Assembly (NCBI GenBank): GCA_964355955.1
Contig: CAYHFQ010000012.1
Location: 1 to 31,292, forward strand
DNA from: an uncultured Gammaproteobacteria bacterium
Lineage (GTDB): Bacteria; Patescibacteriota; Patescibacteriia; UBA9934
Length of the DNA: 31,292 bases
Direction: 5' to 3'
Numbering within the stretch: the stretch's first letter is position 1; every line of letters starts with the position of its first letter. The notes under the pieces were generated by a model. The model saw only the letters and a list, made by a program, of their open reading frames with translations, searched no databases and had not been told where the DNA came from. Below, piece after piece: positions 3,541-28,228 of this stretch. The position numbers and the translations under genes were made by a program.

Positions 3541-3681
3541 AGTTTTGAGCTTTTGAGGGCTCGAGACTCTCGAACGGCGTAATGGGGGATTACGAAGTTG
3601 GAGAGTCCCCGCAAGCTAGCTGTTGTGCACAGAAAGTTGCGGGACGTTGGTGTGTCCCCCGGAGCAAGCTCGACGGGGGAC
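3541..3681 (-). repeat. island-1 intergenic hairpin module, copy 1 (downstream of the 168-aa gene)
   Basis: Minus strand carries GTCCCCCG..CGGGGGAC, then GTCCCGCAA-N22-TTGCGGGGAC, then GACTCTC-N29-GAGAGTC, then CCCTCAAAAGCTCAAAACTCC. Confidence 0.6.
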
Positions 3682-4317: not shown

Positions 4318-4397
4318 GCTTTCGAAAACCACAATTAAATAATTATGGGTTTTGAGAGTCCCCGCAAGCTAGCTGTGTGCCAGAAAGTTTGCGGGAC
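4318..4397 (-). repeat. island-1 intergenic hairpin module, copy 2
   Basis: Minus strand carries GTCCCGCAAA-N21-TTGCGGGGAC, then TCTCAAAACC..GGTTTTCGA. The stem is near-identical to copy 1. Confidence 0.6.
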
Positions 4398-6604: not shown

Positions 6605-6680
6605 CGACCCTCGAAGTTCACGAGATGAACTCATGAGTTTTGAGAGTCTCCGCAACCAGCTAGTGCTAGTGGTTGCGGGA
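6605..6680 (-). repeat. island-1 intergenic hairpin module, copy 3
   Basis: Minus strand carries CCGCAACCACTAG-ca-CTAGCTGGTTGCGG (13-bp stem), then GAGACTCTCAAAACTCATGAGTTCATCTCGTGAACTTCGAGGGTCGTTC. Confidence 0.6.
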
Positions 6681-7126: not shown

Positions 7127-7305
7127 AGAGTTCGGAGGGATCGGGAAACTTGGTGGTGCACACCAGAGGTTTCCCGGGAGAGGGTGAGTGAAGTCAGCCA
7201 GTGACTCCGTGCCGTTCTGTCTAGCTCAGAAGACGTTGGCTAGAAGACCCGCGTGGCCTTTGGCGACTATTTATGTAAGCGCTGTCGTCGGCGCTGTGAA
7301 CCTTG
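7127..7305 (-). repeat. duplicated leader block, copy A (hairpin module copy 4 plus 113-nt conserved block 7193-7305)
   Basis: Hairpin TCGGGAAAC..GTTTCCCGG lies at 7141-7177. The block 7193-7305 matches 8501-8613 at 109/113 positions (my count; all four differences are transitions). Confidence 0.85.
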
Positions 7306-7689
7306 CCGATAGTTGACTCCGTAAGGTTGGGGTGGAAAAGCTGAAGGACGTCAGCTAACGCGATGAAGCAGTCATCTCTGGTCTCGCTGGTATCGAAACG
7401 GTGTAGCACCAGTGACCGTTGGGCCTTAACTACTTTTTATACCGCGCCGTAGTCAGCGCTTGGGTGTCGACGATTGCGACCTCCTTTGGGTTGGGGTTTT
7501 GGTATTGAGAATCAGGAAGATCCTCGATTGACGACTCGAATGTTCTCGGAATAGAGATTCAAGTGGTCGATAGAAGACCCCACCAACGCGATGTGCGTCG
7601 AGCTGGTGGGAAATTCGTGCTGTGACTTTGTTGTGGTTGGGGTGTGATGAACTTGAATAGGAGTCGTCACGTCTCCTGGGAGGCTGCGC

Positions 7690-8289
7690 CTACTGCGCGG
7701 TGGCCTCCTGGAGGGAGGCGAGCTCGGCCGTGAGCCGGGTCACCTCCTTCTTCGCGGAGAAGCCGCTGTACCCCTTTCCGCCCGTGAGGACGAGCTTGCG
7801 CTCGGCCTCGACCAGTGCGGACTTGGCTGCCGCGATCTTGCCGGCTGCCTGGTTCCTCGCGGCCAGTTTTTCGGCAGCGGCGAGGGCCGCCTCCTTCTCG
7901 TCGCGGCGGGCGACCGCGACCTTATGGTCGGCGCGGGCGGCCGTGAGGGCCGCTCCCACCTTGTCGGCGGGGACGGTGCCCACAGAACGGGGAGTGTTGC
8001 AGCACCGATACCAGCCGAGTTCCGTTTCCGCGTTGCGGAGCTTACGCTCCGCGACCAGAACCTGGGCCTCGGCGGCCGCGACCTGCGCGACCGGGGCCGT
8101 GAGGCGGTCCTCTACCGCCTCCGAAAACTCCACCTCCGCGGCCGTGACGGCCGCCTCGAGGTCGAGGGTCTTGGCCGCCGCCGCCACGCGGCGGTTGATC
8201 TCGGCCTCGAGGACGGCGATTTCGCTGGCGAGCAGGGACAGGAGGGGAGCCGCGACGATGGGGGAGGTGCTGGAGATAGATGCGGTCAT
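7690..8289 (-). CDS. Ala-rich coiled-coil protein (199 aa), island-1 orphan
   Basis: ATG 8289 has AGAGGG 5-6 nt upstream and GC3 is high. Long heptad-like Ala/Glu/Lys/Arg segments are interrupted by GWYRCCNTPRSVGTVPADK. The + ORFs 7700..8305 and 7924..8301 are shadows. Confidence 0.65.
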   Translation of the reverse strand: MTASISSTSPIVAAPLLSLLASEIAVLEAEINRRVAAAAKTLDLEAAVTAAEVEFSEAVEDRLTAPVAQVAAAEAQVLVAERKLRNAETELGWYRCCNTPRSVGTVPADKVGAALTAARADHKVAVARRDEKEAALAAAEKLAARNQAAGKIAAAKSALVEAERKLVLTGGKGYSGFSAKKEVTRLTAELASLQEATAQ

Positions 8290-8419
8290 GGGACCCTCTG
8301 ATTGAACGTTGAATGCAGTTGGACTGACGCTAGACATCGAACCGGCCAAATTGCCGATCACAACATTTTGCGTAAATCGTTCTGCGAACGCCCTCGAACT
8401 TCACGATTGGATCAATCAT

Positions 8420-8613
8420 GAGTTTTGAGGGAATCGGGAAACTTGGTGGTGCACACCAGAGGTTTCCCGGGAGATATCGAGTTGGCGCTCGATGCGCAGA
8501 GTCAGTCAGTGACTCCGTGCTGTTCTGTCTAGCTCAGAAGGCGTTGGCTAGAAGGCCCGCGTGGCCTTTGGCGACTATTTATGTAAGCGCTGTCGTCGGC
8601 GCTGTGAACCTTG
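8420..8613 (-). repeat. duplicated leader block, copy B (hairpin module copy 5 plus 113-nt conserved block 8501-8613)
   Basis: Hairpin at 8434-8470 is identical to copy A. Relative to A there is a 28-nt versus 13-nt indel between hairpin and block. The sequence continues as CCCTCAAAACTCATGATTGATCCAATCGTGAAGTTCGAGGGCGTTC on the minus strand. Confidence 0.85.
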
Positions 8614-9369
8614 AAGATGACTTTCTCCAGTGGGCGTATATTGCCCGGTGATGATCTCGCTTCCCGCAGCCTGGATTGACACAGATATGTGCCGTCGCGC
8701 TGGCTGGTGGAGTTAGAGATCGAGTGCTGTGTCGACGTCGACGTTGTACGGGCAGGATTGCCGGGTACTGTCAGCCGTGACTCTGCAGCGCTCTCGAACG
8801 TCACCAGCGAGTGATGAAGTTGGAGAGCCCCTGAAGTAGATGCGAGGCATCACTTCAGGGCTAGGTCCCGTCAACACGAGGGCTGACGGGACACGAGTTA
8901 CGTTGTTCGTAACGTGAAGTATAATTTCCACGGGTTCCTAATGGACGGGCTCGAGAGTTGGCGAATCGGCGCAGGGCGTCGTCGTCAGTCGAGTAACCGT
9001 CGCCGGAAGGGCGCAGATACTTCTGTGTGTTAACTCTTCAGTTGTGAAGGTTCAGTTCCTTTGCCACGGTGGCTAAGCCTTGCGGCTGTTGGTAAGGACT
9101 GCAGGAGGTTCAAAACTGTTTTGAACTCCCGCGCACTCATTACCACGGTTATTTTCTCTGTTGTAACCGGGGGAAGTCTGGTGTGTTGGCCGAGCGTACT
9201 CAGTTACCACTTGCCAGGTTCCGACGTTCCGGCGGAGCCGGAGTGAGAACATAGGTGCTATCGAGTAAAAGTCTCTCTCACCCACTGTGGGGAATTGGCC
9301 TCGAGGGACCAGCTTTTGCTCAATGTCAGCTATGTGAGGGCCTTTTGTTCTCAAGCCTTGCGGCGAGAA
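8614..9369 (-). other. ORF-free, hairpin-dense segment (candidate long structured leader or ncRNA)
   Basis: No ORF over 93 aa on any frame, and none has an SD or island-like GC3. Many perfect stems are present: CCCTGAAGT/ACTTCAGGG 8829-8860, GTCCCGTCA/TGACGGGAC 8866-8891, GTTACG/CGTAAC, and GGTTCAAAAC/GTTTTGAAC ~9107-9127. Two GCC-GCAA-GGC GNRA-capped hairpins lie at 9079-9088 and 9356-9365. Confidence 0.35.
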
Positions 9370-14493: not shown

Positions 14494-14847
14494 TTAGAGG
14501 GTTATATTGTTGATGAAAGAGTTTAACATGCGCATTGTTTCACTGAGTAGTTCCTCGATCCGTTGTTTTGTGTTTTTTGATAAATACCCGAAATCTTTTG
14601 CTAGAATTAATTGTGTTTCTAATTCAGCTCCCGATCCGTAAGCTATGTAAAGAAATTTTCTGAAGTCTTTTTGACTTCCTCGTCGTGATCCTTCTGCAAT
14701 ATTACTTGGGATAGATATTGAAGCACGTCGCATTTGAGAAGTTAGTCCAAATCTTTCATGATGAGGAAAGGTGTTCGTCAACTGATAAACTTCGCGACAA
14801 ACATCCATGCTCTTTTGCCAAATCAGTAATTCATTATAGGCAGCCAT
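14494..14847 (-). CDS. four-helix-bundle protein (the family formerly called 23S rRNA intervening-sequence protein)
   Basis: 117 aa. LIWQKSMDVCREVYQLTNTFPHHERFGLTSQMRRASISIPSNIAEGSRRGSQKDFRKFLYIAYGSGAELETQL is the characteristic family pattern. Confidence 0.85.
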   Translation of the reverse strand: MAAYNELLIWQKSMDVCREVYQLTNTFPHHERFGLTSQMRRASISIPSNIAEGSRRGSQKDFRKFLYIAYGSGAELETQLILAKDFGYLSKNTKQRIEELLSETMRMLNSFINNITL

Positions 14848-14895: not shown

Positions 14896-15444
14896 CTATA
14901 CTCCCCCTGGCCTAAAGCACTGCCGGCAGCGAGCTTCATACGAGTCTGTGGCGCCGACGATGACGAGCTCTTGAGAAGTGCCGAGGCGTTGGGTTTGGGT
15001 GCCACTGCCGCCGCAGACCATGCAGACGGCGTGCATTTTGCTGACGTTTTCCGCAATGGCTAGGAGTTGGGGCATGGCGCCAAAGGGGAGGCCGCGGAAG
15101 TCACTGTCGAGTCCGGCGATGATGACTTGGCGGCCGCGATCGGCGAGCTCCATGACAAAGGGGACAATGCTGTCGTCATAGAACTGGGCTTCGTCGATGC
15201 CGATAACTTGAGCGTGGGGGTCGAGCTTGCTACGAAGTTCCGCGACGGTCATGGCGCCGGTGGCTGGCAGCTTCATGGAGGAATGACTTTCGACGTGGCC
15301 GCTGGTGTAGCGTTCGTCCAAGGCGTGCTTGAAAAGTTGCACCGGCAAGCGGGCTAGTTCGCTGCGTCGAATACGCCTGAGCAACTCTTCGGTTTTGCCG
15401 GAGAACATGCAACCTGAGATAACTTCGATGCCGCCTCTATACAT
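14896..15444 (-). CDS. tdk: thymidine kinase
   Basis: P-loop VISGCMFSGKTEELLRR, and C-terminal zinc-ribbon cysteines CMVCG...CRQC. Confidence 0.9.
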   Translation of the reverse strand: MYRGGIEVISGCMFSGKTEELLRRIRRSELARLPVQLFKHALDERYTSGHVESHSSMKLPATGAMTVAELRSKLDPHAQVIGIDEAQFYDDSIVPFVMELADRGRQVIIAGLDSDFRGLPFGAMPQLLAIAENVSKMHAVCMVCGGSGTQTQRLGTSQELVIVGATDSYEARCRQCFRPGGV

Positions 15445-15461: not shown

Positions 15462-15615
15462 TTCGCTCGCAACTGACGGATTATCCTATTCCTAGCTGCG
15501 CCTCGTCAACCGTACCAGCCGTCTCACCTCGTATGACTCGGGCGCTGGTACAGGGCCGAGGCTGGCGTCGTCATAGGACAACCCGCCAGCTGCTCGCTCC
15601 TACAAGGCTCAGGCT
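15462..15615. repeat. palindromic intergenic repeat family, copy 2 (5'-truncated)
   Basis: Same core as copies 1 and 3, in the same orientation, in the divergent tdk/GT4 intergenic region. Confidence 0.8.
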
Positions 15616-19476: not shown

Positions 19477-21312
19477 ATGCTTAAAAAGAAAATGCATTTG
19501 CCAAAGATCGAGGAGGAGGCCGAAGTCTCGCCGGAACAGGCGATGGACGAAGGTTTGGCGGCAATTTATGGGGAAAAGCGCGATGATTTGGGGAAGCTCG
19601 ACCAAGCCGGATCGCGAGTTACCAGGTGGCTGGTGACAATTGTTTTGTCATTGCTGATAGCGGCTATTTTGGCAGTGATTGGGTTCGTGCTTTACATGAA
19701 TTTTTTTGCGGTGGCTAAGACAGATCCGTTGATGATGAGTATTGAAATGCCAACTGAGATTGCGAGTGGCACGGTAGCTACGGTGACGGTGCACTACAAG
19801 AATAACGGCCGAGTGCCGTTGGCTAATTTAAATATTGATGTAAATGTGCCGGCTGGTTTTGTACCGACAACTATTGAACCTGTACCGACAGATTTGGTTA
19901 AACAGACTTTTGAGTTGGGCAGTATGCAGGCTGGGATAGAGGGAAGCGTCATAATGACTGGTACTTGGCTGGCAACGGTGCCTTCGACTAATACCGTGCA
20001 AGCGTTGGCAACCTACCGACCAGCTAATTTTAATGCAGATTTTACGGCTGTGGCGTCGACGACAGCTAGTAGTAATACGAGTAGTTTGCTGTTAGCGATG
20101 AGTGGACCAGATAAAGCGTCCCCGGGGGAGAGCGCTGTATATACGCTGACTTTGGAGAACGCGAGTGAGGTAAATGCAACAAATGTGACAACTGAGGTGA
20201 CAATTCCGGCTGGCTTTTTGTTGACTGCAAGTGATCCAGCTTTGGTACCAGCTGGGCCAACCGCTTGGACGTTGGCGGACTTGGCACCACACGCTAAGCA
20301 GGTTATGACGCTGACTGGGTCGTGGTCGGCAGATATGAGTGACGTGGTACAGATGGTTGGTAAGGTGAGTACTAAACTTAATGACGTGACGATGGTGCAG
20401 AGTCAGGCCACAGTATTCACGAATATTATTGGGAATGGTTTGCGCTTGAGTTTAGTGGCGAATGGGGCGACGAGTAATGTGACGCTTGACCCGGGGAGCC
20501 AGTTGCGACTGACGGTTGGTTATGAAGATACGGGGGAAGAGCCGTTGACCGGAGTTAGCATGGTGGTTGATTTTCAGTCGGCGGCTGATAAGAAGGTTCC
20601 TATTACTTGGAAGGAAGCTACACTTGATGGTGGTAGACTGACGGCGGATGGTATTAGTTTTGACGCTAAGACTTTGGGCACGCTACCAGTGCATGAAAGT
20701 AAGACGCGAAATTTGATCTTCCCGGTGAAGGCTGTAGTTGCTGTGACTGAGGCGCAGAGTTGGACGGTGGCCGTGCATGCGACGGTGAACGGGGTGACGA
20801 TTTCCAGTCAGCCGTTGACGATTACTTTGAACTCGGACACGCATTTTACGGCAGCGGCACGTTATTTTACAGCGGAAGGGGCGCCACTTGGGAGTGGTCC
20901 GTTACCACCAAAGGTTGGACAGGCGACATCCTATAATTTACTTTGGACGTTGAATAATACTTTACACCCATTAACTGAGGTGCGAGTTTCCGCGACGTTG
21001 CCGCCGGGCGTAACCTGGACGAACGCGACAGCGGCAGATTCTGGTAGTGTGAGCTACGACGCAGCCTCGCGAGTGGTGAGCTGGACGGTGGCGAGTGCGG
21101 CGGCTTCGAGTACGCCAGTAACTGCGAATTTTGAGGTGAGTGTGACGCCGAGCGTGAATGACGCTGGGACATTCGTTAAATTATTATCGGGTAGTGCATT
21201 TAGAGCGACGGATAGTGTGACGGCTTCTTCACTCCAGCAGACGGGGGAGATTTTGACGACGGAATGTACGGGTGATGCTGGTGTGACGGGTAAGGGTTAT
21301 GTGAGTGAGTAG
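19477..21312 (+). CDS. membrane-anchored surface protein with repeated DUF11/CARDB-like beta-sandwich modules
   Basis: N-terminal TM (WLVTIVLSLLIAAILAVIGFVLYM). Recurring segments include TVTVHYKNNGRVPLANLNIDVNVPAGF and AVYTLTLENASEVNATNVTTEVTIPAGF. Confidence 0.55.
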   Translation: MLKKKMHLPKIEEEAEVSPEQAMDEGLAAIYGEKRDDLGKLDQAGSRVTRWLVTIVLSLLIAAILAVIGFVLYMNFFAVAKTDPLMMSIEMPTEIASGTVATVTVHYKNNGRVPLANLNIDVNVPAGFVPTTIEPVPTDLVKQTFELGSMQAGIEGSVIMTGTWLATVPSTNTVQALATYRPANFNADFTAVASTTASSNTSSLLLAMSGPDKASPGESAVYTLTLENASEVNATNVTTEVTIPAGFLLTASDPALVPAGPTAWTLADLAPHAKQVMTLTGSWSADMSDVVQMVGKVSTKLNDVTMVQSQATVFTNIIGNGLRLSLVANGATSNVTLDPGSQLRLTVGYEDTGEEPLTGVSMVVDFQSAADKKVPITWKEATLDGGRLTADGISFDAKTLGTLPVHESKTRNLIFPVKAVVAVTEAQSWTVAVHATVNGVTISSQPLTITLNSDTHFTAAARYFTAEGAPLGSGPLPPKVGQATSYNLLWTLNNTLHPLTEVRVSATLPPGVTWTNATAADSGSVSYDAASRVVSWTVASAAASSTPVTANFEVSVTPSVNDAGTFVKLLSGSAFRATDSVTASSLQQTGEILTTECTGDAGVTGKGYVSE

Positions 21313-22430
21313 AGAGCGTCGAGGGTGAGGGCAGCGGTTTTGTCCCAGGTGAATTGACGAGCGCGGAGAGGACCCTGAGTGCGGAAGGATTGCCTGAGGG
21401 AGGGGGAGGCGAGAAGCTGGGTGAGGGCGGTGGTGAGATCCGTGATGTTGAAAGGGTCAGTCATGAGGCCGGCGTCGCCTAAGAGTTCGGGGAGAGAACT
21501 GGTGAAGCTCGTGATGACGGGCGTGCCGCAAGCCATGGCCTCGAGGACAGGTAAGCCGAAGCCTTCGTAAAATGAGGGGAAGAGAAAGGTTTGGGCGCCG
21601 CGGTAGAGCGCTGGTTTGTGCTTTTCGTGGATGTAGCCCAAGAAGATGATATCCGCGGCGTAGGGGGAGGCCTTAGCAGCGTCCAGAATGCTTTGGTATT
21701 TCCAGCCTTTGGCACCACCGATAGCTAGCTGTAGGCGAGTAGGTGAGGTGGCGCGATAATTATTAAAGGCGGTGATGATGCTCTCCACATTTTTGCGTGG
21801 TTCTTGGGTGCCGAGCGATAAAATATAAGGGCCGTTTAAACCGTAGCCACGTTGGTAATTGGTGTCACTTGGGGCAACGTGCGAGGTGAATTGAGAGCCG
21901 ACACCGAGATGAGTGACGGTAATTTTGCGCTCGTCGATGTGCCAGCGATTGACTAGGTCGAGTTTGGTGCTGTGCGAGACGGCGAGAATGGTGCGAGCCT
22001 GGTTAGTTAACTTTTTGACGTTGGCGACACGGTTGCGGAGGCGATCCTTGAAAGTGAAGTACTGCGGTAAAATGTCGTGCGATAAATCATGGACGGTGAG
22101 GGCGTAGGGGAGGTTGGTGCGAATTATGTTGGCGTCTGGGAAGAGCCAGCAGTCGACGGGACTTGGCAGAAAAGATTCAAGTGTTGGCCCGCCTGGTAGA
22201 CTTAGTAAAGCGAAAAGTAAGCGATTGGGGATTTGTTTGGTGACGATGGTGATGTTGGGGGCGGTGATGATGGGAAGACGGGCTAGTGTTTTTTTACTGC
22301 CGCTGGCGAAGAGGACGAATTCGACCTGAGGGGCACACCGTGCGAGGGCACGAATAAGATTGACGGTGTAAAGGCCGACGCCGGAGAGTTGGGGGTGTGT
22401 TAGATGACGAATGTCGATCGCGACCTTCAT
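21297..22430 (-). CDS. glycosyltransferase family 4
   Basis: From MKVAIDIRHLTHPQLSGVGLYT. C-terminal FPSFYEGFGLPVLEAMACGTPVI. Confidence 0.85.
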   Translation of the reverse strand: MKVAIDIRHLTHPQLSGVGLYTVNLIRALARCAPQVEFVLFASGSKKTLARLPIITAPNITIVTKQIPNRLLFALLSLPGGPTLESFLPSPVDCWLFPDANIIRTNLPYALTVHDLSHDILPQYFTFKDRLRNRVANVKKLTNQARTILAVSHSTKLDLVNRWHIDERKITVTHLGVGSQFTSHVAPSDTNYQRGYGLNGPYILSLGTQEPRKNVESIITAFNNYRATSPTRLQLAIGGAKGWKYQSILDAAKASPYAADIIFLGYIHEKHKPALYRGAQTFLFPSFYEGFGLPVLEAMACGTPVITSFTSSLPELLGDAGLMTDPFNITDLTTALTQLLASPSLRQSFRTQGPLRARQFTWDKTAALTLDALYSLT

Positions 22431-22440
22431 ATTTAGTATT

Positions 22441-22630
22441 GTCTTTGCGAGCATCAGCGAAGCAATCAAGGCGTATCGCTCGCGATTGCCACATCTCCTA
22501 TTCCTAGCTGCACCTCGTCAACCGTGCCAGCTGGCTCACCTCGTCTGACTCGGGAGCTGGCACAGGGCCGAGGCTGGCGTCGTCATAGGAGATGTGGCAA
22601 CCGCTGCCCCACTCTACAAGCCTCAGGTTC
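22441..22630. repeat. palindromic intergenic repeat family, copy 3 (best outer stem)
   Basis: The 13-nt arms CCACATCTCCTAT / ATAGGAGATGTGG enclose the conserved core. It starts 10 nt from the GT4 ATG. Confidence 0.8.
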
Positions 22631-25678: not shown

Positions 25679-25705
25679 GCAAATTCCCCAGGCGGAGCTG
25701 GGGAA
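25676..25705 (-). terminator. intrinsic terminator ending the island-2 operon; overlaps the rnpB -35
   Basis: Minus strand reads TTCCCCA-gctccgcc-TGGGGAA followed by TTTGCTTT. Confidence 0.6.
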
Positions 25706-25777
25706 TGAGACGGGCCACAGTCGTTCGCGAACGACGTGGCGGGTGTTCAGCGCGATTACATCGGCTGAACGAGACGG

Positions 25778-25864
25778 TTACGGGGAGTGGCGAGAGCGCC
25801 AGATGACGATGGCGAGGCCAAGCACCACGGCGGCGGCTAGCCAGTAGTCAGCAGCAGTGCGCAT
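25778..25864 (-). CDS. possible 28-aa single-TM micropeptide (MRTAADYWLAAAVVLGLAIVIWRSRHSP)
   Basis: Hand-translated and below the ORF-track cutoff. It overlaps the end of the 58-aa ORF in another frame. It has a hydrophobic core and a basic tail. I saw no clear SD. Confidence 0.25.
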   Translation of the reverse strand: MRTAADYWLAAAVVLGLAIVIWRSRHSP

Positions 25865-26013
25865 TCGGCCACCTCCTCTTCGGGGCTACAGGCGTCCCAG
25901 TCGTCGAGGGTCAACTCGTGAACTCGGCCATCGGCGTGGTGGATGGTAGCCTGGCCGCCTGGTCCGACTACGACCAGGTAGCTGGTCGACGACTTGATCT
26001 TGTCGTCGCTCAT
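25837..26013 (-). CDS. small acidic hypothetical protein (58 aa), island 2
   Basis: ATG 26013 overlaps the upstream stop as ATGA (26013-26010), which suggests translational coupling. GC3 is high. Confidence 0.5.
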   Translation of the reverse strand: MSDDKIKSSTSYLVVVGPGGQATIHHADGRVHELTLDDWDACSPEEEVAECALLLTTG

Positions 26014-26528
26014 GAGCCCACCTGCTGAACCACGTTCTTGCCGGTGGCGATGTCCCAGTAGCGGATCTGCTCGATCAGTCCCGACCAATCCTTGACCGAG
26101 GCCCAAGCAATCTTGGGGCAATCCTCGGGGTCGACGAGCAACAGCAGGTCGGCCGGGACGTTCGGGTAGATCGAAACTTCCTGCCTAGAGCCACTGGCCG
26201 CGAGATGTCGAGGATGGAAAGGGCCCTCGTTATCCCAGACATCGTGGTGCCGGGCGTCGCCGATGATCTCGAGCTTGGCGTTGTCGCCGAACTTGAGGCC
26301 CTTGCCGAGGTCGAGTTCGGTGAGCCTGGCCTCGCCTTGGGTGGCGGTGACGACGATGGCGGCGACCTGGCCGTGGGCGCGACACTCCTCAGCCGTGTTT
26401 GGCGTGAAGCTGACGGTCAGGATGGCCGGCAAGGTGTTGGTGGCGACGAAGCTCGGGTCGATCTCACCGTCAACCGGTGCGCAGGAGGTGGCGAGGCCGA
26501 GGGAAAGGGCGAGGATGAAGTTGCGCAT
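26010..26528 (-). CDS. putative lipoprotein (172 aa), island 2
   Basis: ATG 26528 has GGAGG 5 nt upstream. The signal peptide is MRNFILALSLGLATSC with a relaxed lipobox. The track N-terminal extension crosses the leader repeat. Confidence 0.65.
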   Translation of the reverse strand: MRNFILALSLGLATSCAPVDGEIDPSFVATNTLPAILTVSFTPNTAEECRAHGQVAAIVVTATQGEARLTELDLGKGLKFGDNAKLEIIGDARHHDVWDNEGPFHPRHLAASGSRQEVSIYPNVPADLLLLVDPEDCPKIAWASVKDWSGLIEQIRYWDIATGKNVVQQVGS

Positions 26529-26580
26529 GGGCGCCTCCGAAAGGGGGTGAGGGGTGGGTGGTGAATTTAGGGAGGGAATG

Positions 26581-26656
26581 TCCGCCCTTCGCTGCGCATG
26601 AGCCTTTGATGTTGGAGCTCGTGAACAAGGAAGGGCCGGCCGAGTGTGAGAACTCG
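26581..26656 (-). repeat. island-2 structured leader element, copy 1
   Basis: Minus strand reads CCGAGT-tctcac-ACTCGG, GCCGGCCCTTCCTTGTTCACGAGC...GCTCATGCGCAGCGAAGGGCGGA. P1 is CCCTTC/GAAGGG and encloses a CACGAGC hairpin. Confidence 0.75.
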
Positions 26657-26682
26657 ACGGGACTTGCGGGTGGATGATGAGC

Positions 26683-27078
26683 TCAAGCATTGATGTAACA
26701 CTTGAGGACATCGGTGGCGGCCCTGCTCAACGTCGCGGCGTCGGGCCGGAAATTGCCAGTGGGGCCGAGCACGGAGTCGATGGTGCCGTCGGAGTTGTCG
26801 TCGCCCAGGTGGAGGGTGACGAAGCCGCCGACGTCGCCGTTCGTGTTCTGCACGGTCATGATGAGGTAGAGCGTGCGCAGGCCGTTGTCGCGAACGGTGA
26901 GGCCGACGCTGTTGCTCAAGCCGACTGGGCAGTCGAAGCTGTCAAAGTAGTCGGTGGCACCGTTGACCGCAATGGCTCGGCTGGTGCTGCTCAGCTTGAG
27001 ATCCGCGGCGGCAGCGAGCGCGCTCGGCACAGTGGGTTGGCCGGCGGCGAGGGCGAGGGTGACGAGGGTGGGAATCAT
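26683..27078 (-). CDS. small secreted protein (131 aa, two Cys), island 2
   Basis: GGAG lies 6 nt upstream. The signal-like N-terminus is MIPTLVTLALAAGQPTVPSALAAAAD. GC3 is near-saturated. Confidence 0.65.
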   Translation of the reverse strand: MIPTLVTLALAAGQPTVPSALAAAADLKLSSTSRAIAVNGATDYFDSFDCPVGLSNSVGLTVRDNGLRTLYLIMTVQNTNGDVGGFVTLHLGDDNSDGTIDSVLGPTGNFRPDAATLSRAATDVLKCYINA

Positions 27079-27109
27079 GGGTGCTCCAGAGTTTCAGGGA
27101 AGAGTGATT

Positions 27110-27176
27110 TCCGCCCTTCGCTGGGCACGAGATAGGCTCGTGAACAAGGAAGGGCCGGCCGAGTGTGAGAACTCGG
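27110..27176 (-). repeat. island-2 structured leader element, copy 2
   Basis: Nearly identical to copy 1 outside the inner loop. It abuts the stop codon of the 66-aa gene. Confidence 0.75.
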
Positions 27177-27377
27177 CTAGAGGGAGGCGACAGCGGGGCT
27201 GGTGGGAGCAGGACGGTAGAAGTCCTCCAGACCGGCGTCGTCGCGGTAGATCTGCCAGATGGCAGGGAGAGCTGGCGTGGACTCGGCCGGGATGGCGCCG
27301 AGATCGATGACGACCGGGGCGCTGGCCATGGGCTTGGTGGAAGTGCAGGCCAAAAGGGCAAGGATAAGAAGGGTCAT
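27177..27377 (-). CDS. small lipoprotein (66 aa), island 2
   Basis: MTLLILALLAC has a canonical L-L-A-C lipobox. GGAG lies 9 nt upstream. Confidence 0.6.
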   Translation of the reverse strand: MTLLILALLACTSTKPMASAPVVIDLGAIPAESTPALPAIWQIYRDDAGLEDFYRPAPTSPAVASL

Positions 27378-27412
27378 GGGGTGGCTCCGGTGGCTGGTAG
27401 GGAAGATTGATT

Positions 27413-27488
27413 TCCGCCCTTCGCTGAGCGCGAGAATGGCTCGTGTTCAAGGAAGGGACGGGTAGGTGCGAGAAGGCGCACACTACCC
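27413..27488 (-). repeat. island-2 structured leader element, copy 3 (divergent first hairpin)
   Basis: The core CCCTTCCTTGAACACGAGC..CTCAGCGAAGGGCGGAAATCA is conserved. The upstream hairpin is replaced by GGGTAGTGTGCGCC..GCGCACCTACCC. Confidence 0.7.
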
Positions 27489-27510
27489 AGAACGCGGCTC
27501 ACTGGTGGCC

Positions 27511-27690
27511 CTAGAAGAGGCCAGCCACGAAGTGCCAGGCGAGGGCGATGTCGGTGACGAAGTTGGTGCTGGCGGCGAGCGCGATGCTCGCGTAGGCCAG
27601 GATGATGATCAACATCATGCGGGTTTGACCGCTGGTGATGATGTTGTCGTTGCCGAGGGTGTCGAAGTATGTGACCGGGGTGTTGGACAT
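27511..27690 (-). CDS. small membrane protein (59 aa), island 2
   Basis: ATG 27690 has GGAG 9 nt upstream. A polar 24-aa N-terminus precedes the hydrophobic MMLIIILAYASIALAAS..IALAWHFVAGLF. Confidence 0.5.
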   Translation of the reverse strand: MSNTPVTYFDTLGNDNIITSGQTRMMLIIILAYASIALAASTNFVTDIALAWHFVAGLF

Positions 27691-27823
27691 GGCGGGTGCT
27701 CCGGGAGTTGGTGGGCTGTTCGGCTGCGGAAATGCAGACCGGTGATGCGCAGAACCCGAGGAGACGGGTGGGTTCTGCACACGGCCGGTGCGGCCTCAGT
27801 GAGAGGCCGCGGTGGCGACGAGA

Positions 27824-28228
27824 TCAGCTGCGGTTGTCCGGCAGCTGCCAGCGCCCATCGACTTCCACCAGCTTGATGGGGTGGTCGGCGCACCAGGGCA
27901 AGACCTGGCTCGGCTGCGTGGGTTTGTAGCTCGCGAAGTCGTGGCAGATGTCGCCGACGATGGGGCGCTCTGTCGGGAAGAGGAGCATGCCCACGATGCC
28001 GCCGATGGCTGCGCAGATCATGACTGCCAGGCCGAGGACTGGCCAGGAGAAGATGTCCCAGCTCGTGTACAGGGTCGAGGCGACGCCGATGATGGCACCG
28101 ACCAGCGCACCGATGAAGGACCGGCGGTTGAAGACCGGGATCAGCAGGTCGATGACGAAGAACGTGAAGATGGTGAGGAACAGAAAGACGGTGGTGATGA
28201 CGATGCCGAGGAGGCGAAGAAGGCGCAT
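27824..28228 (-). CDS. integral membrane protein (134 aa, about 3 TM) with Cys/Trp-containing C-terminal tail, island 2
   Basis: ATG 28228 has GGAG 6 nt upstream. GC3 is near-saturated in this frame only. The competing ORFs 27615..28265 (-) and 27812..28255 (+) are Pro/Arg/His- or Asp/Gly-rich shadows. Confidence 0.65.
   Translation of the reverse strand: MRLLRLLGIVITTVFLFLTIFTFFVIDLLIPVFNRRSFIGALVGAIIGVASTLYTSWDIFSWPVLGLAVMICAAIGGIVGMLLFPTERPIVGDICHDFASYKPTQPSQVLPWCADHPIKLVEVDGRWQLPDNRS

Follow-up and report, generated by a model that had tools for sequence, protein, structure and literature searches.

The stretch of DNA examined here comprises 31,292 nucleotides (nt), positions 1 to 31,292 of contig CAYHFQ010000012.1 (assembly GCA_964355955.1), and is referred to in its full length as the window. 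Between trpS and rnpB, the gene for RNase P RNA, it contains an island with six small genes, g1 through g6, and three of the spacers between these genes carry copies of a ~75-90 nt module that folds into two hairpins. We call this module type A. Its sequence family is previously undescribed and is confined to a small Uhrbacteria-related clade, and its members are intercistronic mRNA hairpin modules. That the element acts as an RNA, in general, is probable. Our favoured reading is more specific, namely that the modules promote intercistronic mRNA processing and segmental stability, and we assign it a probability of about 0.45.

Exactly three type-A modules are present in the window, all on the minus strand (Table 1). 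One half of the conserved core, CCCTTCCTTGNNCACGAGC, has three exact matches with 0 mismatches (26617-26635, 27136-27154 and 27439-27457), compared with a chance expectation of 0.09 matches in the window even when 3 mismatches are allowed. The other half, CAGCGAAGGGCGGAMAT, also yields three exact matches (chance expectation of 0.15 on the same 3-mismatch basis). No further type-A copy was found in the window by pattern or with covariance model R1. Folding of the copies on the mRNA strand gives z-scores of -4.1, -2.7 and -3.8 relative to dinucleotide shuffles, and RNAalifold returns the same two hairpins.

Type-A modules between the cistrons of one operon

The island, at 63% GC, is one operon with a single promoter, a single terminator and six co-directional open reading frames (ORFs). 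Type-A copies occupy the g2-g3, g3-g4 and g4-g5 gaps, and the g1-g2 gap holds a sibling module designated type B. The -35 box of the promoter lies inside the loop of the trpS terminator hairpin and the -10 box just past its T-run, an overlapping arrangement that is kept in relatives L161, L163, L165, L166 and L171. A sigma-70 promoter was sought in the three type-A gaps and none was found; the sole other match in the island is weak (9/12) and falls inside the g2 coding sequence. Likewise, the operon strand has no U-tract terminators beyond those at 28302-28276 and 25706-25683; what comes after the motif is GGAAATC or a C-rich spacer. Because there is one promoter and one terminator, and none within the type-A gaps, the hairpins are expected to be transcribed inside the operon mRNA. 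The promoter-proximal gene g1 has a ~30-nt unstructured leader and no module. Given that copies stand between cistrons and none precedes g1, the element is intercistronic rather than a set of three independent 5' leaders, and its lack before the first cistron ties it to cistron junctions rather than to translation starts.

Table 1. Coordinates of the operon, its modules and the adjoining transcription signals in the window, in the order of transcription (signal peptide and lipobox calls were made by eye).
Feature	Position	Strand	Remarks
trpS intrinsic terminator hairpin	28302-28276	(-)	overlaps island promoter; AAAATGGC-TTGACAAACA-GGCCATTTT
Island promoter TTGACA-17-TATTAT	28294-28266	(-)	sigma-70, 11/12 match; the island's only one
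Operon body	25837..28228	(-)	each gene with GGAG 6-9 nt ahead of ATG
g1	28228-27824	(-)	134 amino acids, membrane
Type-B module	27724..27810	(-)	g1-g2 gap
Type-B first hairpin	27810-27790	(-)	GCGGCCTC-tcac-TGAGGCCGC; read from sequence
Type-B long hairpin	27788-27739	(-)	CCGG CCGTGT GCAGAACCC...GGGTTCTGC GCATCA CCGG; 13+4 bp, 2x2 loop
Type-B small hairpin	27737-27724	(-)	CTGC...GCAG
g2	27690-27511	(-)	59 amino acids, one transmembrane helix
Type-A copy 3	27409..27488	(-)	g2-g3 gap; own, longer hairpin 1 at 27488-27460; linker GT
Copy 3 hairpin 2	27457-27416	(-)	5-nt loop; tail GGAAATC
g3	27377-27177	(-)	66 amino acids, lipobox
Type-A copy 2	27106..27177	(-)	g3-g4 gap; top covariance-model score, 81 bits
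Copy 2 hairpin 1	27177-27158	(-)	first base is the last base of the g3 stop codon
Copy 2 hairpin 2	27155-27113	(-)	5-nt loop; tail GGAAATC
g4	27078-26683	(-)	131 amino acids, signal peptide
Type-A copy 1	26577..26665	(-)	g4-g5 gap; 5' flank AAGTCCC conserved
Copy 1 hairpin 1	26658-26639	(-)	loop TCTCAC; then linker CG
Copy 1 hairpin 2	26636-26584	(-)	GCCCTTC / C.C / TTG-CAG / 2x2 loop / CACGAG-CTCATG / 11-15 nt loop; tail GGACATT
g5	26528-26010	(-)	172 amino acids, lipoprotein
g6	26013-25837	(-)	58 amino acids; overlaps g5 by ATGA
Operon-ending intrinsic terminator	25683..25706	(-)	with U-tract; then rnpB promoter
rnpB promoter	25678-25650	(-)	sigma-70 scan
RNase P RNA (rnpB)	25640-25256	(-)	Rfam

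On the mRNA strand, hairpin 2 is predicted to consist of G-CCCUUC, a C.C mismatch, UUG-CAG, a 2x2 loop, an inner stem in which CACGAG pairs with CTCGYG or CTCATG, and a terminal loop of 5-15 nt. This amounts to 19 pairs plus 3 mismatch positions, or an irregular duplex of ~20 positions with an internal loop. Its base, GCCCTTC ... GAAGGGC, is present on both strands in all seven copies from the window and its relatives. Copies 1 and 2 have (G)YCGAGT-TCTCAC-ACTCGGC as hairpin 1, and copy 3 has an unrelated stem of 11-12 bp, GGGTAGTGTGCG/CGCACCTACCC, in its place. Copies 1 and 2 are 100% identical across 40 nt of their 5' side, and copies 2 and 3 have ~20 extra nt in common on their 3' side (GGAAATCA.TCTTCCCT), which makes copy 2 a mosaic of both. 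The distance from the end of the tail heptamer to the ATG is 48 nt for copy 1, 27 nt for copy 2 and 31 nt for copy 3, and with the relatives included the spacings between module and ATG are 27, 31, 48, ~34, ~59 and ~117 nt. The Shine-Dalgarno (SD) sequence is unpaired in the predicted folds of the copies.

The strain itself occurs in five assemblies that differ by at most one single-nucleotide polymorphism per 3.3 kb. At position ~12160 of locus L128, equivalent to window position ~27168, a T-to-A change converts the hairpin 1 loop of copy 2 from TCTCAC to TCACAC, and this is the sole difference in 3.3 kb between the window and the same strain from another sample.

The original prediction for this DNA had described three leaders, each with a conserved core, ahead of three genes for exported proteins. 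Structured minus-strand copies are indeed present at all three places, with each half of the core matched exactly three times. Folding supports the proposed pairing of CCCTTC with GAAGGG around an inner CACGAG hairpin, and both reading and folding bear out a preceding hairpin that is alike in two copies and is an unrelated, longer stem in the third. The tail is GGAAATC in copies 2 and 3, as had been proposed, but GGACATT in copy 1, and the distances given to the start codons were 4-5 nt too large. The downstream proteins had been judged not to be paralogous; an all-against-all BLASTP comparison gave no matches among g3, g4 and g5, and the element is not a by-product of gene duplication. A non-coding, structured and selectively maintained element is genuine, although its copies are not leaders but intercistronic spacers in one operon, whose promoter-bearing first gene is without the element.

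Conservation of the modules and their siblings in related genomes

The motif pattern was found in one further genome of 185,579 species genomes, the metagenome-assembled genome DeMMO3_42 (L161), as a single exact-pattern copy. Homologues of trpS and g5 led to six lineages (L161, L162-164, L165, L166/167, L168 and L169-171), each of which was read over ~10 kb around the locus. The closest named trpS is that of 'Candidatus Uhrbacteria', so that the host, a groundwater bacterium, is assigned to the candidate phyla radiation (CPR; Patescibacteria), and the island is present at the same site in seven related Uhrbacteria-like CPR genomes. In every relative, an array of small same-strand ORFs lies between rnpB and a trpS gene with the same terminator/promoter hairpin. 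Orthologues of g1, g4, g5 and g6 are recognisable, although the identity of island proteins is 27-54% compared with 88-93% for trpS. Genes g2 and g3 are specific to the window strain, G_9788 is specific to the groundwater lineage, and several genes in relatives are also without a detectable counterpart. The order g1...g4-g5-g6 is collinear across all lineages.

Type A is present in three lineages only, with three copies in the window strain, one in DeMMO3_42 and in the related contig L169, and two in the groundwater lineage L162-164. Gene g4 and type A occur as a pair in the window strain, DeMMO3_42 and the groundwater lineage, and both are absent in L165; across genomes, type A accompanies the upstream g4 at least as tightly as the downstream g5. 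A search of 99 kb (the window plus 68 kb of relatives' flanks) with covariance model R1 and filters off yielded no further type A. It gave weak resemblances (E 0.02-5) to type B, to a second sibling family termed A' and to one hairpin of another high-GC island of the window (island 1).

DNA identity between the window and its relatives is 75-85% for trpS, 82-91% for rnpB, 52-66% for island ORFs and 81-91% for type A. In a sliding-window comparison with the g4-g5 gap of DeMMO3_42, the first 40 nt of the element are 100% identical and later positions 82-90%, with the differences all located in the terminal loop. The coding DNA on either side of this copy is 45-70% identical to that of the window. 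Outside the loop, type A is 90-100% identical between the window and its relatives, or ~97% overall. The type-B module is 91% identical in DNA to its L165 copy, even though the flanking ORFs are unalignable. Persistence of the element amid decayed surroundings indicates purifying selection and not neutral decay, and by these comparisons the constraint on type A equals or exceeds that on RNase P RNA. Conservation is exact at unpaired positions as well, since the lineages agree in the TCTCAC loop, GCCGG linker, C.C mismatch and GGAAATC tail. Selection acts on the fold, and more strongly still on the sequence of the helix base, loops and linkers.

The predicted type-A pairs are formed in 90% of cells, compared with 37-52% when partners are slid. 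Where sequences differ, pairing is mostly kept: in L169, hairpin 1 has changes of U-A to C-G (a full compensation) and of U.G to C-G, and hairpin 2 has a change of U.G to U-A, and in the outer stem of GW_a a C-G pair is replaced by U.G. Changes from U.G to U-A and from U.G to C-G are found in L169 and copy 2.

The sibling families, at least three with type A counted, occupy the same intergenic slots in relatives. They share a common plan with type A, in which a short hairpin after the stop codon is followed by a long hairpin, a C-rich unpaired spacer and GGAG-ATG. In all three families the 4-7 bp base of the long hairpin and the adjoining internal loop are conserved in sequence, the top varies freely, and each module has ~19-21 stacked positions. 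A' consists of hairpin 1 followed by CCCCCG-...-CGGGGG. It fills the gap before g5 in L165, L170 and L171, is also present in six gaps of the Uhrbacteria genome L166 and in two of L163, and has large nested insertions in its loop. In L163, type A and A' stand in tandem with no gene between them.

Type B provides the stronger covariation. Its upper stem is fully swapped in L163, where TCACGAGCC/GGCTCGTGA replaces GCAGAACCC/GGGTTCTGC. Across four lineages, compensatory changes affect 4/13 pairs, 96% of cells are paired, and only 1/500 shuffles reaches the score. Wobble cells are G.U on the mRNA strand in 6/6 cases, as opposed to a single A.C. This combination of covariation and mRNA-strand wobble points to a transcribed RNA helix rather than to a duplex-DNA palindrome. 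Moreover, the type-A inner stem UCACGAGCC equals the upper stem of the L163 type-B copy, which suggests that the families exchange or share modules.

mRNA processing and stability weighed against other readings

We propose that transcription would start at the promoter just past trpS, run through g1-g6 and end at the U-tract terminator before rnpB. In each spacer, hairpin 1 would form right after the stop codon, followed by the irregular hairpin 2. A double-strand-specific endoribonuclease, most likely RNase III, might then recognise the conserved base of hairpin 2 and cut in the lower stem, thereby dividing the operon mRNA. The new 3' end of the upstream segment could be capped by hairpin 1 or by the stem remnant, and the structured new 5' end of the downstream segment could resist the 5'-3' exonuclease RNase J. 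By this route, the abundance of each surface-protein cistron would be set independently.

Several observations weigh against this proposal. Covariation within type A is not significant (12/19 and 15/25 pairs are invariant, and 76-78 of 500 shuffles reach the score) because the sequences are too similar. On the mRNA strand, two inner-stem columns of hairpin 2 are mismatched (copy 3 and GW_a have A.C, copy 1 and DeMMO have C.A), and these same columns would be G.U on the antisense strand. A global count of G.U against A.C over 20 gaps from six genomes is not discriminating, and the G-rich antisense strand refolds. The near-perfect conservation of the TCTCAC loop and GCCGG linker exceeds what RNase III or a stabiliser needs, which suggests a more sequence-specific partner. 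In addition, gene content around the modules varies between relatives in a cassette-like manner. We infer from sequence and predicted folds that RNA, not DNA, is the functional form of type A, and cleavage, the role of RNase III as the enzyme and segmental stability are purely inferred.

Exact conservation of the unpaired loops, linker, mismatch and tail would also suit an operator for a sequence-specific RNA-binding protein that co-regulates g3, g4 and g5, or the source of a ~80-nt trans-acting small RNA. The same element precedes unrelated genes, as a regulon tag might, and C/U-rich loops and a CCCGTC hexamer appear repeatedly where the gaps are single-stranded. We nevertheless consider this rather unlikely, as no candidate binding protein is known. 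The module stands 27-117 nt from an SD that never pairs, making direct translational occlusion unlikely, and in relatives the same genes are found with A' or with no element (g4 in L163 and DeMMO; g5 in L165, L170 and L171), so that the element is not tied to particular genes. A different explanation invokes DNA: the modules might be attC-like folded recombination sites of an integron-like cassette array whose recombinase is encoded elsewhere. Small same-strand ORFans behind a single upstream promoter, each followed by an imperfect palindrome, fit such an array, and so does the palindrome itself, with its conserved 7-bp base GCCCTTC/GAAGGGC, unpaired spacer, second box and variable terminal loop. 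Island content differs among close relatives, g4 and its type-A site being present or absent together; L163 has tandem A-A' sites without an intervening gene; copy 2 joins a 5' side like that of copy 1 to a 3' side like that of copy 3; and conservation of the elements exceeds that of the ORFs, as in Vibrio VCRs (Vibrio cholerae repeats). However, the attC signature, R'' RYYYAAC / R' GTTRRRY, is absent from both strands, with TTC/GAA in place of AAC/GTT. Among the window ORFs scanned, none encodes an integrase, transposase or reverse transcriptase, and in seven relatives the precomputed Pfam annotation of the 7-10 kb around the island lists no recombinase domain. Gene order is collinear and the orthologues have diverged deeply in place, which favours vertical descent over shuffling. 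In addition, the array is identical within species (in five and three independent assemblies of two species), and the type-B wobble pairs favour the RNA strand. We therefore regard attC-like sites as unlikely, and a version in which A, A' and B are the sites of an unrecognised, integrase-distant CPR cassette system with cores GCCCTTC/GAAGGGC and CCCCCG/CGGGGG as quite unlikely. If such a system did exist, it would mean a surface-protein array assembled or diversified behind a fixed promoter at the trpS-rnpB site, and could account for conserved sites amid ORFs that are almost unrecognisable in close relatives.

That type A is a selfish palindromic repeat, of the miniature inverted-repeat transposable element (MITE), repetitive extragenic palindromic (REP) or Correia type, which multiplied inside the island and has since become neutral or is only incidentally transcribed, is very unlikely. 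It is palindromic, its copy number per lineage is 3, 2, 1 or 0, the genome has other families of hairpin repeats (a 130-nt hairpin in three copies and the island-1 repeats), and one relative has a Y1 transposase gene. Yet neither the remaining 28 kb of the window nor the 68 kb of relatives' flanks contains a copy, and the 185,579 species genomes provided none outside DeMMO3_42 with the exact pattern. True matches are also lacking in IMG/VR, where each motif half gave single chance matches only and none with its partner half, and in the JGI metagenomes, where a gapped pattern too strict for the L163 variants gave 30 matches, all of them by chance and inside unrelated coding DNA. The flanks of the copies have no consistent target-site duplication, the orthologous copy is ~97% identical amid neighbouring DNA decayed to 55-70%, and the palindromes on either side of the L161 Y1 gene are unrelated. 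A riboswitch or other ligand-sensing leader for each downstream gene would explain why a conserved, folded element with invariant nucleotides in its internal loop precedes genes, but is highly improbable. The hairpin is simple and unbranched, without a junction or pseudoknot, and there is no expression platform in the form of a terminator or SD pairing; the downstream genes are unrelated ORFans, and only three closely related lineages have the element. Searches with Rfam 15 of the window and five relatives' loci at the gathering threshold, and of the island at E<=10, returned only rnpB and tRNAs. Finally, position between genes, and nothing more, would suggest a duplicated promoter or terminator, which is scarcely credible given that the three type-A gaps have no promoter and that the hairpins are without a T-run, unlike the real terminators of the locus.

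These comparisons also bear on what the original prediction had left as options. Its view that the element belongs to no known riboswitch class agrees with the Rfam result, and riboswitch-type control is disfavoured by the variable distance of 27-117 nt to SD and ATG, by the fact that nothing pairs with the SD and by the lack of a U-tract terminator. A processing unit and a protein-binding element had both been proposed and are also favoured here, but the terminator part of that proposal is not, as the hairpins have no U-tract. The duplicated promoter, named there as a refuting outcome, finds no sigma-70 match in the three gaps. A covariance-model search had been recommended as a check; homologues were obtained from relatives, but the 99 kb provided no further type-A copy and covariation within type A did not reach significance.

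Two other identities for the repeats were rejected. Long ORFs cross the copies (27094-27483 and 26942-27361), but a 10-nt loop indel and different reading frames speak against a coding repeat. Template and variable repeats of a diversity-generating retroelement (DGR) do not fit either, because the differences between copies are not adenine-specific and the window has no reverse transcriptase.

If the RNA reading holds, the modules represent a compact, sequence-defined signal that splits and stabilises a polycistronic mRNA in a CPR bacterium. To our knowledge, almost nothing is known about post-transcriptional control in CPR bacteria, which are not culturable alone. The usual pattern of conservation is inverted in this operon, in that the spacers are conserved like a ribozyme and the genes between them diverge almost beyond recognition. 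This marks the operon as a hot spot of surface-protein diversification, plausibly at a host or phage interface, with the hairpins as a fixed scaffold. Together with the trpS-rnpB synteny, the covariance model could serve to locate such operons in CPR metagenomes, and the locus provides a test case for separating RNA-level from DNA-level (cassette) selection on intergenic palindromes.

Surrounding genes, other repeats and known systems

Searches of g1-g6 against Pfam and PHROGs gave no significant match. Protein g5 retrieved only itself among 5.8 billion clustered proteins, and five representatives (four relatives) among 1.84 billion clusters. AlphaFold2 models were too poor for a fold search, with predicted local distance difference test (pLDDT) values of 35 for g5 and 41 for g4. 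Neighbouring genes encode RNase J, SecG, a DsbA-like protein, a protein resembling type IV secretion system pilins, DUF4012 and GT4 glycosyltransferases; the RNase J gene is in the window, two genes upstream.

The minus strand of the 2.7 kb island has four CCCGTC hexamers, every one of them in the non-coding parts, which make up 30% of its length. These sites (27768-27763, 27462-27457, 26661-26656 and ~25714-25709) are each located in the loop, linker or flank of a predicted hairpin module, and related CGTCTC(C) strings are present in the hairpin loops of relatives. CCCGTC may be a recognition motif.

In the more distant relatives, a very stable structured RNA of ~190 nt lies between the island promoter and the first ORF (L166 7985-8235 and L168 2321-2584); Rfam gives no match to it, and the window strain lacks it. 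At L163 13012-14582, and also in L162 and L164, a DGR-type retroelement consisting of an RVT_1 reverse transcriptase gene and a bAvd-like accessory gene is inserted immediately behind rnpB, beside the island. In the window, an ORF at 14494-14847 (-) matches the family of 23S rRNA intervening-sequence proteins (PF05635, E 3e-41) and has a weak bAvd-like match. It is a solitary ORF, bordered by NUDIX and thymidine kinase genes, and there is no reverse transcriptase nearby. DeMMO3_42 has an AT-rich insertion (L161 6932-7805) that is absent at the equivalent window site and contains a gene for an IS200-like Y1 transposase of 192 amino acids (Y1_Tnp, 7199-7777). Near-identical 36-nt perfect palindromes (CTGTATAAGCTGAGCGTCGACGCTCAGCTTATACAG) flank this gene on both sides, in a manner resembling REP sequences and their associated tyrosine transposases (RAYTs). 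A link between this transposase and type A was rejected, as the flanking palindromes are unrelated to type A.

Two further groups of repeats were noted in the window. An unrelated imperfect hairpin of ~115-130 nt is present in three copies (542-671, 15464-15593 and 22476-22605) that are 72-88% identical. Its minus-strand fold has an energy of -78 kcal/mol and a z-score of -5.8, and it has no Rfam match. Two of these hairpins lie just upstream, in the minus sense, of genes for thymidine kinase (14896-15444) and a GT4 glycosyltransferase (21297-22469), and the element could be MITE-like or a long structured leader. The other high-GC island, at ~3.5-9 kb with 62-66% GC, has ORFs without Pfam matches and intergenic repeats of its own. 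These comprise a hairpin, GAGAGTCCCCGCAAGCTAGCTGT...TTGCGGGAC, in 3-4 copies (3590-3635, 4343-4388, 6631-6655 and 8416-8440) and a repeat of 119+45 nt in two copies (7137-7310 and 8430-8618; 95-98% identity). High-GC islands of ORFans with private hairpin repeats seem to be a recurring theme in this genome.

Each of the known families compared with type A fails on at least one tested defining feature, and a search of the literature on integrons or attC sites in Patescibacteria and on CPR intergenic hairpin repeats found nothing relevant. In function, type A comes nearest to the RNase III sites between T7 early genes and to REP/BIME or Correia repeats within operons, and in architecture to a chromosomal integron array with species-specific attC sites. 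Among the known systems, attC sites and the VCR arrays of sedentary chromosomal integrons share with the island one promoter and small, promoterless ORFans in the same orientation, with a species-typical imperfect palindrome per gene that has a 7-bp base, a spacer and a second box, and with sites better conserved than the ORFs. The R-YYY and RRR-Y parts of R'' and R' fit, but the AAC/GTT core is absent. In contrast to integrons, there is no intI or attI, trpS and the RNase J gene lie upstream, and no strain-level rearrangement is seen.

The REP sequences and bacterial interspersed mosaic elements (BIMEs) of E. coli, for example at malE-malF, and the Correia elements of Neisseria are transcribed, and either stabilise upstream mRNA or are cut by RNase III. 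Like type A, they are palindromic intergenic repeats within operons, with a plausible effect on segmental mRNA stability. They are also modular mosaics, a property seen here in A, A' and B and in the differing units that form hairpins 1 and 3. By contrast, REP and Correia sequences are dispersed in tens to hundreds of copies and mobilised by RAYTs or other transposases, whereas the modules described here are limited to one operon and have no RAYT link. They have no GTAG signature and no terminal inverted repeat or target-site duplication signatures, and are under strong purifying selection.

The plan common to A, A' and B, with its ~19-21 stacked positions, matches the geometry of RNase III substrates such as the T7 R1.1-type sites. 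The RNase III sites of T7 early mRNA (R0.3-R1.3) are likewise repeated, mutually similar irregular hairpins of ~50-60 nt with an internal loop. They are positioned between the cistrons of one transcript, ahead of the next SD and without a U-tract, and have a duplex of about two helical turns with a conserved base and a varying top. Type A differs from these sites in that it has no sequence similarity to them, has an extra short hairpin before each copy, and would be cleaved according to our proposal only. Its sequence conservation across species is far above the known need of RNase III, and its setting is a chromosomal operon of a CPR bacterium rather than a phage.

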